Below, piece by piece: positions 3,855-31,795 of a DNA stretch of 64,000 bases (the first letter of the stretch is position 1; each line of letters opens with the position of its first letter). The translations under genes were made by a program, and so were the position numbers. Where the stretch lies: sequence record DRR378314_685; one strand, written 5' to 3'. Under the pieces are notes generated by a model. That model searched no databases. It had not been told where the DNA came from and was given only the letters and a program-made list of their open reading frames with translations.

Positions 3855-4478
3855 TCAGCCCTTGCCAGCCATGCGCAGGAATCGGTTGCGCAGGTCTGCA
3901 TCAGATTTGAACACGCCCGTGAATTGCGTGGTGATCGTGCTGACATCCTTGTGGTGAACGCCGCGCGTGGACATGCATTCGTGGACGGCATCAATCAGGA
4001 CAGCCGTGCCCATAGGGGCCAGGCTTTCGGTGATCGCATCACAGATTTGCGCTGTCATGGTTTCCTGTGTTTGCAAGCGCTTGGAAAAGATCTCCACGAC
4101 ACGTGCCAGTTTGGAAATACCTACAACGGCTGCCGATGGCATATAGGCCACGTAAGCCTTGCCGAGGAAAGGCGCCATGTGGTGTTCGCAATGGCTTTCC
4201 ACGTCAATGCTGCGCAGCATGACGATGTCGTCATAGCCCTGCACGTCTTCAAAGGTGCGTGACAGGTACTTTACCGGGTCTTCGTCATAGCCGGAGAACC
4301 ATTCCTTGTAGGCATTGACCACGCGTTTTGGCGTATCAAGCAGGCCTTCACGCTGTGGATCGTCGCCAGCCCATGCAATGAGCGTGCGAACGGCCTCTTC
4401 AGCTTCCTGAACGGTGGGGCGCTTCACAGGCTCAGCGCGTGCCTTGTCTTTATTGGGAGTGATGGCGTCCATTGCCAT
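3855..4478 (-). CDS. folE: GTP cyclohydrolase I
   Basis: REGLLDTPKRV, SHCEHHMAPF, GISKLAR, RLQTQE, HECMSTRGV. Confidence 0.96.
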   Translation of the reverse strand: MAMDAITPNKDKARAEPVKRPTVQEAEEAVRTLIAWAGDDPQREGLLDTPKRVVNAYKEWFSGYDEDPVKYLSRTFEDVQGYDDIVMLRSIDVESHCEHHMAPFLGKAYVAYMPSAAVVGISKLARVVEIFSKRLQTQETMTAQICDAITESLAPMGTAVLIDAVHECMSTRGVHHKDVSTITTQFTGVFKSDADLRNRFLRMAGKG

Positions 4479-4496
4479 GATTGAAGTTTCCTTCGA

Positions 4497-4594
4497 CTGA
4501 GGGACGGGGGTCGAGCCGAGGCTTGGTCTGGGAAAGCGCGTTCATCTTGCTCCCCTGCCCGGACTTAACGCCCGCCCGGAGTTGATACCCTCAG
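4497..4594 (-). ncRNA. Candidate structured cis-regulatory RNA in the folE leader (THF-riboswitch-like)
   Basis: Closing helix CUGAGGG/CCCUCAG; internal GCGUUAAGU and GACCAA junction strands; ends 3 nt before the AAGGAA SD. Confidence 0.5.
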
Positions 4595-4713
4595 GGCGAT
4601 ATGAGGAACATAAGGGCGTGAATGCCCTGTTTCCAGCCCTTTCTACGGTGACGTTGCGCCAGTGGATGAGTCATTTCTTGGCTTTTTTGTACGTCGATGA
4701 TACTGGCTCGCGA

Positions 4714-4764
4714 ATGAAAACGATCCGATTTCACCGTTGTTCTGCCTGCTGCTGTTGCTGTTGA
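4714..4764 (+). CDS. Cys-rich leader peptide MKTIRFHRCSACCCCC upstream of cysS
   Basis: 16 codons with 6 Cys, 5 of them consecutive before the stop; ends 82 nt before the cysS ATG. Confidence 0.8.
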   Translation: MKTIRFHRCSACCCCC

Positions 4765-4846
4765 CGCCTCAACGCGCCATTAGGGCTGGCCATATATTCC
4801 CGAAGCCAGCGCATTCCTCAGACTTTCGAAATCGAGCCATAAGACC

Positions 4847-6232
4847 ATGACAATCCGCCTTTATGACACCGCCGCGCGCGAAAAGCGCGTATTCGAGCCG
4901 CAGGATCCGGCCCGGGTCACGATGTATGTCTGCGGGCCGACCGTCTACAATTACGCCCATATCGGCAATGCGCGCCCGCCCATCGTATTTGACACGCTGC
5001 GGCGTCTGCTGATGCGGGTGTATGGTGAGGAAGCTGTCGTCTATGCACGCAACATCACCGACATCGAAGACAAGATCATCAAGGCGAGCCAGGAGAGCGG
5101 TCAGCCGATTGTGGAGATCACCCGGAAATTCGCGGACATCTACAATGCTGACACGACGGCGCTGAACGTTCTGCCTCCGAGCATCGAGCCGTGGGCGACG
5201 CAGCATGTCGGCGAGATGATCGACATGATCGAAAAGCTTGTTCGCAAGGGCTATGCCTATGTCGGCAAGGAAGGCGTCTGGTTCTCCGTCAAGGCCATGT
5301 CCGACTATGGCAAGCTGTCAGGTCGCAAGCTGGAAGACAATGAAGCCGGCGCGCGGGTTGCGGTCGATGCGGACAAGCGCGATCCGGCAGATTTTGCCCT
5401 CTGGAAGTTCGCCAAGCCCGGCGAGCCGGAAGACGCGATCTGGGATAGCCCGTGGGGCAGGGGACGCCCCGGCTGGCATATCGAATGCTCGGCCATGGCC
5501 GCGAAACATCTTGGCAAGACGATCGACATTCATGGCGGCGGGATTGATTTGCAATTCCCTCATCATGAGAACGAGATTGCCCAATCCGAATGTGCGCACG
5601 GCGAGGTGATGGCGAATTACTGGTTGCACAATGGCTTCCTCGACATGGGCGGCGAGAAGATGTCGAAGTCTCTCGGCAATGTCGTCCTGGTTCACGACCT
5701 GCTCCAGAAATGGCCGGGCGAGGTGCTGCGCTTTGCGATGTTGAGCGGGCATTATCGCGCGCCCCTGGACTGGACCGAAGACCTGCTGAAACAGGCAAAG
5801 ACGACACTCGACCGCATCTATGGCGCACTTCGCCGGGTCTGGGCCGCTGAAGGCGGAGAGATCGATGACCGCGGCGTGTTTGATGCGCTGTGTGATGACC
5901 TGAATACGCCGGAGGCGTTGGCGTCCCTTTCCCGTCTGGCAGGGGAAGCGAACACCGCTGCCGACAAAGGCGATGTTGACGCCATGGCGACGGCACGCGC
6001 CAACCTGCTGGATGCAGGGGCGTTTCTCGGCCTGCTGACGATGACGCCGACAAGCTGGGAACAGGGCGGCGATGATGACGACAAGGCGCGAATTGATGCG
6101 CTTGTTCAGGCCCGGATTGATGCCCGCGCGGCAAAGGATTGGGCAGAGGCAGATCGTATTCGCGATGAACTTGCTGCCGAAGGTATCGAGATCATGGATG
6201 GGGCAGGCGGCTCGACCTGGAGACGGGCCTGA
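4847..6232 (+). CDS. cysS: Cysteine--tRNA ligase
   Basis: MYVCGPTVY, HIGN, GRPGWHIECS, FPHHENE, KMSKS. Confidence 0.98.
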   Translation: MTIRLYDTAAREKRVFEPQDPARVTMYVCGPTVYNYAHIGNARPPIVFDTLRRLLMRVYGEEAVVYARNITDIEDKIIKASQESGQPIVEITRKFADIYNADTTALNVLPPSIEPWATQHVGEMIDMIEKLVRKGYAYVGKEGVWFSVKAMSDYGKLSGRKLEDNEAGARVAVDADKRDPADFALWKFAKPGEPEDAIWDSPWGRGRPGWHIECSAMAAKHLGKTIDIHGGGIDLQFPHHENEIAQSECAHGEVMANYWLHNGFLDMGGEKMSKSLGNVVLVHDLLQKWPGEVLRFAMLSGHYRAPLDWTEDLLKQAKTTLDRIYGALRRVWAAEGGEIDDRGVFDALCDDLNTPEALASLSRLAGEANTAADKGDVDAMATARANLLDAGAFLGLLTMTPTSWEQGGDDDDKARIDALVQARIDARAAKDWAEADRIRDELAAEGIEIMDGAGGSTWRRA

Positions 6233-31708: not shown

Positions 31709-31795
31709 GCCTCTGTGGCGGAATTGGTAGACGCGACGGATTCAAAATCCGTTTCTGGTGACAGAGTGCCGGTTCGAGTCCGGCCAGAGGTACCA
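31709..31795 (+). tRNA. tRNA-Leu(CAA)
   Basis: Acceptor GCCTCTG/CAGAGGT + ACCA; anticodon arm ACGGA-TTCAAAA-TCCGT; long variable arm; GGTTCGAGTCC. Confidence 0.97.

Follow-up and report, generated by a model that had tools for sequence, protein, structure and literature searches.

The folE gene in the stretch of DNA analysed here (64,000 nt from sequence record DRR378314_685, hereafter the window) is preceded by a conserved leader RNA at positions 4594-4497 of the minus strand, which we describe as an unreported folE riboswitch candidate matching no catalogued family. Our comparative analysis indicates that the element is a conserved, folE-specific leader RNA that recurs across genera and families with structural support, and the observation of a THF-riboswitch-like RNA in the folE leader, made in a preliminary description of this sequence, stands. 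We favour the explanation that the folE 5′ UTR contains a cis-regulatory RNA not described so far, with the element as its aptamer-like domain, which would sense a pterin or folate and act on translation, and we consider this reading reasonably probable. The general features of a riboswitch are present, namely a conserved structured 5′ UTR element, a coherent gene and support from sequence variation. No report of the element was found in the literature searched, which consisted of openly available papers without the supplementary motif tables of large-scale non-coding RNA screens.

The element is built from three helices on the minus strand and ends 2 nt 5′ of the folE Shine-Dalgarno (SD) sequence. 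The 5′ strand of the closing helix P1 is CUGAGGG (4588-4594), whose core CUGAG pairs with CUCAG (4497-4501); the latter is the end of CCCUCAG (4503-4497), in which two C are shared. A single-stranded J1/2 linker, UAUCAACUCC (4578-4587), contains UCAAC (4584-4580), which resembles J12 of THF-II, and leads to GGGCGGG (4571-4577), the 5′ strand of the 7-bp helix P2, which pairs with CCCGUCC (4502-4508). P2 is followed by a near-invariant internal loop formed by J2/3, CGUUAAGU (4563-4570), on the 5′ side and by J3/2, CUCGACC (4509-4515), on the 3′ side. Together with the preceding G, J2/3 makes up the THF-I junction 9-mer GCGUUAAGU (4571-4563) that leads into P3, and the CGA of J3/2 corresponds to the CGA of THF-I ACGAA. 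The P3 hairpin (CCGGGC...GCCUCGG, 4516-4562, 47 nt) has an invariant CCG/CGG base, is free in length and sequence in its remainder, and holds an optional A-rich bulge, AGACCAA (4529-4523). Past P1, the dinucleotide UC is followed by the SD sequence GAAGGA (4489-4494), which lies 10 nt 5′ of the AUG. The two shared C can be claimed either by the last GG of the P1 5′ strand or by the first GG of P2.

The coordinates, the closing helix and the strings quoted in the preliminary description, which include UCAACUC (4585-4579), GGGCGGGCGUUAAGUCCG (4577-4560) and CGGCUCGACCCCCGUCC (4518-4502), are all correct on the minus strand, and its remark that the element ends close to the SD is right, the gap being 2 nt. 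Two of its structural proposals fared differently. A three-way junction had been drawn through GUCCGGG/CCCAGAC, but this pairing occurs only in long-P3 variants and is absent from many copies with a P3 of 12-20 nt; because the extra pairing sits in the optional part of P3, we reject the three-way junction. ACCAA (4526-4522), which had been taken as the equivalent of THF-I ACGAA, likewise falls within the optional part of P3, and it is CUCGACC that forms the conserved counterpart. In long P3 variants the 3′ side frequently has an A/C-rich bulge, which reads AGACCAA in Hyphomonas, GACCCUC or GAACCCUC in Terricaulis-like copies and ACAGAACAU in Henriciella-like ones; this bulge is missing from short variants and may be an optional tertiary contact. 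Folded by itself, the window element has a minimum free energy (MFE) of -45.5 kcal/mol and a z-score of -0.22, with 76 of 200 shuffles folding equally well; since this single-sequence fold is not distinctive, the comparative data are decisive instead.

The gene directly 3′ of the element is folE (3855-4478, minus strand; AUG 4478-4476), which encodes GTP cyclohydrolase I (PF01227, E = 2.1e-70). Upstream, cysS is divergent on the other strand, and folE appears monocistronic because its downstream neighbour, an alpha/beta hydrolase gene, is convergent. The folE start, AUGGCAAUGGAC (4470-4478, minus strand), contains two in-frame AUG codons, two codons apart; this doubling is kept in Hyphomonas-type leaders, while most other genera have the second only (AUGGAC/AUGGAU). 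A small upstream open reading frame, running from an AUG at 4611-4609 to a UGA inside CUGAGGG, was rejected because its frame is not kept (the distance from AUG to UGA, counted by eye, is 21 nt in the window and 22 nt in the relatives L008 and L011).

Further upstream, the region at 4608-4646 of the minus strand consists of GTAGAAA (4646-4640), CTGGAAAC (4636-4629), a 15-nt GC-rich spacer with an inverted repeat AGGGC..GCCCU (4628-4613), and TTATGT (4613-4608). Two candidate -10 boxes are present, TTATGT with CTGGAAAC 15 nt upstream of it, and TAGAAA (4645-4640), and either would place the whole element inside the 5′ UTR. A sigma-70 consensus scan returned nothing. The arrangement is shared by 27 of 27 distinct Hyphomonas-type leaders from the genus, which read GTAGAA(A/T), 3-4 nt, CTGGAAAC, a fixed spacer of exactly 15 nt and YTATGT. 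TAGAAA and TGGAAA lie 10 bp apart in the manner of a direct repeat, and the GC-rich spacer contains an inverted repeat of at least 4 bp and of changing sequence in 18 of the 27 leaders. This region may be a promoter with an operator, or may instead form a 5′ RNA hairpin.

Contigs from four RNA libraries, each from a different study, cover folE and enter the leader, which shows that leader and gene are contiguous in these libraries. Two of the contigs, ending at 4634 and 4627, span the whole element, and two stop inside it, at 4587 and 4574. Over 4640-4850 there was no RNA contig; these are assembled contigs only, so their ends do not equate to a transcription start. A consensus terminator scan found no terminator-like site.

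Searches of related genomes delimit the distribution of the element. FolE was found in 61 of 61 relatives. Among the same-genus folE leaders with upstream DNA, all 29 keep the two arms of the element almost unchanged, with a middle that varies from about 13 to 41 nt (a 30th locus, L024, lacks upstream DNA and was left out). In other families of the order, some folE leaders carry the same core and some carry other sequences, and these leaders gave no Rfam match. Within the order, a covariance model of P2 and the P3 base (R1, 11 bp) matched 62 of 151 genomes, which fall into 15 of 40 genera, nearly always once per genome. By family, the matches amount to 30/31 (f1), 29/30 (f3), 3/30 (f5), 0/30 (f2), 0/29 (f6) and 0/1 (f4). 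A sample of the class (151 genomes, one per family) yielded two matches, namely the nearest genome and one match of 23.7 bits. One genome (G135) encodes three folE paralogues, each behind its own diverged element (L084, L085 and L086; 57.8, 39.1 and 35.2 bits). Overall, there is in essence one element for each folE gene.

An exact-pattern scan of 185,579 species genomes, one per species, found at least 120 stretches. Among the 120 matches listed, R1 assigns 27.8-93 bits to 105 (71 from the first 80 and 34 from the other 40) and a weak score or none to the remaining 15; by rough arithmetic, about 34 chance matches are expected over the whole scan. Titles of 102 of these 105 listed matches name Caulobacterales, Alphaproteobacteria or Pseudomonadota, and the other three carry the labels of metagenome-assembled genomes (MAGs) from other taxa. 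These three (L147, L162 and L170, titled Ferrovibrio terrae, Candidatus Sulfopaludibacter and Burkholderiales) are typical Aquidulcibacter- or Hyphomonas-type copies followed by folE, at 58-78 bits, and their contigs are probably mis-binned. Eight matches from other phyla among the first 80 listed stretches have at most a weak R1 score and belong to no Rfam family, and were therefore set aside as chance; a ninth stretch (L139), from a Caulobacteraceae MAG, gave no R1 match.

A pool of 120 aligned rows (alignments A3 and A4), less five low scorers (L100, L115, L156, L175 and L180) and after de-duplication, provides 107 non-redundant elements. The FolE N-terminus is encoded directly downstream in 104 of the 107, and the other three were fetched as folE upstream regions and have too little downstream DNA. 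FolE also follows in 34 of 37 stretches from a further batch, the three without it being low scorers, and in every one tested of the de-duplicated pattern-scan copies that score at least 27.8 bits. The element is confined to part of the order Caulobacterales, where two families carry it almost completely and a third partly. Its carriers are Hyphomonas, Henriciella, Ponticaulis, Terricaulis, Vitreimonas, Aquidulcibacter, Robiginitomaculum, Maricaulis and allied Caulobacterales/Hyphomonadaceae MAGs.

The copies share a common layout of P1 (CUGAG/CUCAG), a linker of 8-13 nt (counted in the relatives from after CUGAG to the first G of P2), a 7-bp P2, the internal loop CGUUAAGU/CUCGACC and a P3 of 10-47 nt. 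In alignment A4 (68 distinct rows), which was aligned to the model structure and so favours it, 95.7% of cells pair, compared with 42.6-61.2% when the partners are slid by 1-3 columns. None of 500 shuffles of A4 matched the observed percentage paired, both-side changes, pair types or covariation score, which are four of the five measures used. Changes on both strands are seen at the two inner pairs of the P3 base, and the 95 distinct P3 sequences, 10-47 nt long, nearly all fold into a hairpin (mean z -1.95). This variation with the hairpin kept is the strongest evidence for a function of the element as RNA. P2 cells are 96.3% paired, with seven of seven pairs in 84 of the 107 copies; changes in P2 are one-sided only (GC/GU/AU), and mismatches at its centre occur as U.U or C.U in Robiginitomaculum-like copies and as G.A in Aquidulcibacter-like copies. 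P1 is near-invariant on both strands, with three uncompensated single substitutions (L085, L098 and L118), and reads CUGAG/CUCAG in 74 of 76 exact-match type-A copies, the remaining two being one UUGAG/CUCAG and one misassigned type-B row. Because P1 hardly varies, its support consists of conservation across the variable linker of 8-13 nt. Judged from these patterns, structural support is strong for P3, moderate for P2 and a matter of conservation for P1.

The internal loop is the most conserved part of the element. J2/3 reads CGTTAAGT in 80 of the 107 copies and CGTTAAGA, which differs at the last base only (A), in 23, with other forms in four. J3/2 is CTCGACC in 87 copies, and the other listed forms are 5-9 nt long. 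The linker contains AAC in 58 of 80 type-A copies and UCAAC in 28, and is otherwise variable outside the Hyphomonas-like genera.

Our classification of the 107 copies reveals two architectures, with 80 copies of type A (the window's own), 25 of type B and two odd ones (L097 and L128). In type B the upstream CUGAGGG is missing, and a C-tract past P2 pairs with the G-rich SD (CCCCUUUGAAAGGGG and similar), whose strand, AAGGGG or GGGG, stands in a hairpin directly after P2. This pairing appears in the MFE fold of 21 of the 25 copies, and in a 22nd (L049) in a shifted register. P1 is closed by a strand on its 5′ side in type A and by the SD, on the 3′ side, in type B, an arrangement that resembles a circular permutation. 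In both types the SD 7-mer begins at a median distance of 7 nt past the end of P2, and in type A the SD lies 0-8 nt past P1. The G-rich strand of both types includes two additional G, which could pair with CC in place of the first GG of P2. Both competing GG are conserved, with alignment columns 13 and 14 invariant G and 74 of 80 type-A linkers beginning with GG, which may reflect a strand-exchange switch or a junction motif. Inspection of type-A linkers and loops by eye found no anti-SD pairing beyond 3 bp, and when SD accessibility was estimated from partition functions, imposing the aptamer constraint produced no consistent shift (means from 0.49 to 0.59 in type A and from 0.39 to 0.43 in type B).

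The catalogued RNA families do not account for the element. At the gathering score, a cmscan of the whole window against Rfam 15 returned neither THF-I nor THF-II, the sole match being a tRNA gene (31709-31792, plus strand, 59.3 bits). A search of 4400-4900 at E<=10 gave two spurious matches only, again with neither THF class, in agreement with the preliminary description, which had stated that the element fits neither known class cleanly. The Rfam cut-offs are 36 bits for THF-I (RF01831) and 41 bits for THF-II, the folE motif (RF02977). RF01831 proved sensitive, with 98 of 151 Clostridia genomes above its cut-off. RF02977 scored above its cut-off in 0 of 41 relatives and was silent in the 151 class representatives, and as it matched nowhere, this model is without a positive control. 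In the reverse direction, R1 scored at most 1.6 bits on a true THF-I riboswitch.

THF-I, which also controls folate genes, folE included, nevertheless shares short strands with the element. The Rfam consensus reads ...CGcuAAGuG[P3]aCGAA[P4]gCG on a real match. Of 31 THF-I loci sampled, 22 were parsed by pattern, and among these GCGUUAAGU stands at the P2-to-P3 junction in 15 and ACGAA past P3 in 19. The THF-I strings quoted in the preliminary description are thus real, and the window has the same 9-mer in the same structural place, identical to the commonest THF-I form of the 5′ junction strand. The THF-I form of J2/3, CG(c/u)uAAGuG, is found in the window and kept in 80 of the 107 copies, with 23 more off at the last base. 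A P3 base of CCG...CGG is frequent in both RNAs, both have CGA past P3 (ACGAA in THF-I, CUCGAC in the element), and both follow the order P1, internal loop, P2, junction and P3. The sequence in the window is GCGUUAAGU-CCG...CGG-CUCGA-CC, so it retains the THF-I three-way-junction strands, with their order and their positions in the structure unchanged, although on the 3′ side CGA alone is shared with ACGAA and one extra nucleotide precedes it in J3/2. According to the accessible text of PMC9881143, this junction is one of two pterin sites in THF-I, with contacts at U25 and C53. At the position of the element that corresponds to the ligand-contacting U, 80 copies have U, 23 have A and two have C, a variation that does not suit a strict THF-I-like contact. 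In construct numbering, U25 and C53 are presumably the U of UUAAGU and the C of ACGAA.

These likenesses raise the alternative that the element is a true, much reduced member of THF-I that has lost P4 and the pseudoknot, which would affect its filing only and leave the mechanism the same. The shared order from P1 through a one-sided loop, P2 and the junction to P3, with GCGUUAAGU, the CCG/CGG base and the CGA past P3 in matching places, is what such a member would show, yet we regard this alternative as unlikely. P4 is absent, with the 7-nt CUCGACC lying between P3 and the P2 3′ strand in 87 of the 107 copies, and the junction of the element is consequently two-way rather than three-way. The P3 loops are unconserved and reach down to 3-4 nt, too short and variable for the L3 pseudoknot of THF-I. 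Moreover, the element lacks a 3′-side J2/1, with 0-1 unpaired nt between P2 and P1, and its linker is unrelated to THF-I GAGUAG. Infernal gave no score in either direction, and the phyla differ: the THF-I examples were sampled from Clostridia, whereas the element occurs in Gram-negative Caulobacterales, has no terminator and appears translational. Short junction motifs can also converge on the same ligand.

THF-II is described in the accessible text of PMC6800512 and PMC9881143 as a two-helix hairpin, P1-J12-P2-J21, with the ribosome-binding site (RBS) in the right arm of P1, and is reported there only from Rhizobiales and metagenomes (PMC6800512). The J12 sequence in the accessible text of PMC9881143 is UCAAC (residues U18, C19, A20, A21 and C22), J21 is U44, and C22 contacts the ligand. 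Like THF-II, the element stands directly before folE in Alphaproteobacteria, resembles a small rod-like hairpin with a conserved asymmetric internal loop between two helices, and has the RBS built into or abutting its closing helix. Hyphomonas-like copies further share the linker UCAAC and have one U separating the P2 and P1 3′ strands, comparable to U44 of J21 as given in that source. In contrast to THF-II, the element has one extra helix, three in all, and places its SD past P1 (type A) or in the 3′ arm of a separate hairpin after P2 (type B). Its invariant loop, CGUUAAGU/CUCGACC, is without a THF-II counterpart, and the single U is U, C or A across copies (GU 36, GC 15, AU 6, other 8). The preliminary description had pointed to UCAACUC as a THF-II string. 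The UCAAC within it does equal J12 as numbered in the accessible text of PMC9881143, but UCAACUC does not survive as a defining feature, because UCAAC occurs in 28 of 80 type-A linkers, in Hyphomonas and close kin only, and is not family-wide.

Our data are best explained by an aptamer whose internal loop would enclose the pterin moiety of a ligand such as THF, DHF, dihydroneopterin or a similar reduced folate or pterin. We infer a pterin pocket because the loop strands are those of the THF-I junction site and because the sole gene under control encodes the first enzyme of the pathway; by this analogy, the ligand is probably a reduced pterin or folate. Ligand binding would stabilise a stacked P1-P2-P3 rod, and the bound rod would lower translation initiation. 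This is clear in principle for type B, in which the SD supplies a P1 strand, so that the bound fold would be an SD-sequestering OFF state. In type A the SD lies outside P1, where the bound fold shows no evident route to occlude it. The helices beside the conserved loop barely covary and P1 is near-invariant, which counts against the aptamer reading.

It is distinctly unlikely that the element is instead a riboswitch that works as an ON switch or answers another signal, such as the substrate or a purine (GTP, guanine), a preQ0/queuosine-pathway compound, ZTP, or an oxidised or degraded pterin. FolE also feeds the preQ0/queuosine path, and the acceptance of guanine-like compounds by THF-I speaks for this alternative. 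Here the ligand would close P2, whose first GG would take two C from the SD hairpin (type B) or from the GGG of P1 (type A). Indeed, the CCCC that pairs with the type-B SD overlaps the last two nucleotides of the P2 3′ strand, the two competing GG are conserved, as a strand-exchange switch needs, and the usual riboswitch logic, in which the ligand closes the pocket-side helix, would free the type-B SD and switch translation ON. The exchange in type A, however, alters nothing visible at the SD, and in three type-B copies (L049, L036 and L038, by eye) a CCUU/AAGG hairpin can form beside a full P2, with no competition. In addition, the accessible text of PMC6800512 and PMC9881143 presents end-product repression as the norm in the two validated THF classes as well as in folE leaders.

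Similarly improbable is a conserved leader structure that, rather than sensing a metabolite, is recognised by a small RNA or by a protein, such as FolE itself or a translational repressor, or that governs mRNA stability. The sequence conservation of P1 and the loop, accompanied by little covariation, is also the look of a sequence-specific protein site, but a near-invariant asymmetric loop combined with helices and a free hairpin is the usual anatomy of an aptamer, and the loop strands coincide with the validated pterin pocket of THF-I. Moreover, the element precedes each folE paralogue and lacks a linked partner gene, as its neighbours are cysS and the hydrolase gene. It is extremely improbable that the element is an operator at the DNA level or a fortuitous GC-rich palindrome without a function as RNA, since, although the single-sequence fold is no better than shuffles, P3 retains its hairpin potential from 10 to 47 nt, and the element is strand-specific at a fixed SD distance, restricted to folE leaders in 104 of 107 copies and downstream of both candidate -10 boxes.

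To our knowledge, only two THF aptamer architectures have been described, of which THF-I occurs mainly in Firmicutes and THF-II in Rhizobiales. We give an even chance to the proposal that the folE element is a third folate/pterin riboswitch class ('THF-III'), with the THF-I pocket strands set in a two-way loop, two circularly permuted forms, and a specificity, for one reduced pterin or another or even for a purine, and a sense, OFF or ON, that may differ from those of both known classes. If the pterin-sensing aptamer is real, it would add a third THF architecture, confined to marine and freshwater Caulobacterales, and would explain folE control in a group without a catalogued folate riboswitch. 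It would also mean either that a handful of THF-I junction nucleotides is enough to build a pocket or that this solution evolved on two occasions. The two forms would be a natural circularly permuted aptamer pair with the closing helix tied directly to ribosome access, and the short-P3 forms would offer a compact natural pterin sensor of about 60 nt for structural and synthetic-biology work.

A different conserved hairpin was observed just before the SD in three Caulobacteraceae-type folE leaders (L037, L044 and L045) from family f2, which lacks the element (0/30 genomes). It reads GGGAGAG-YGGCG-CGCGUC...CCGG...CCGG-CGCNACUUCG-YCGC, is unrelated in sequence to the element and gave no Rfam match. 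This hairpin occupies the same place in the folE 5′ leader and may be a further folE leader motif.
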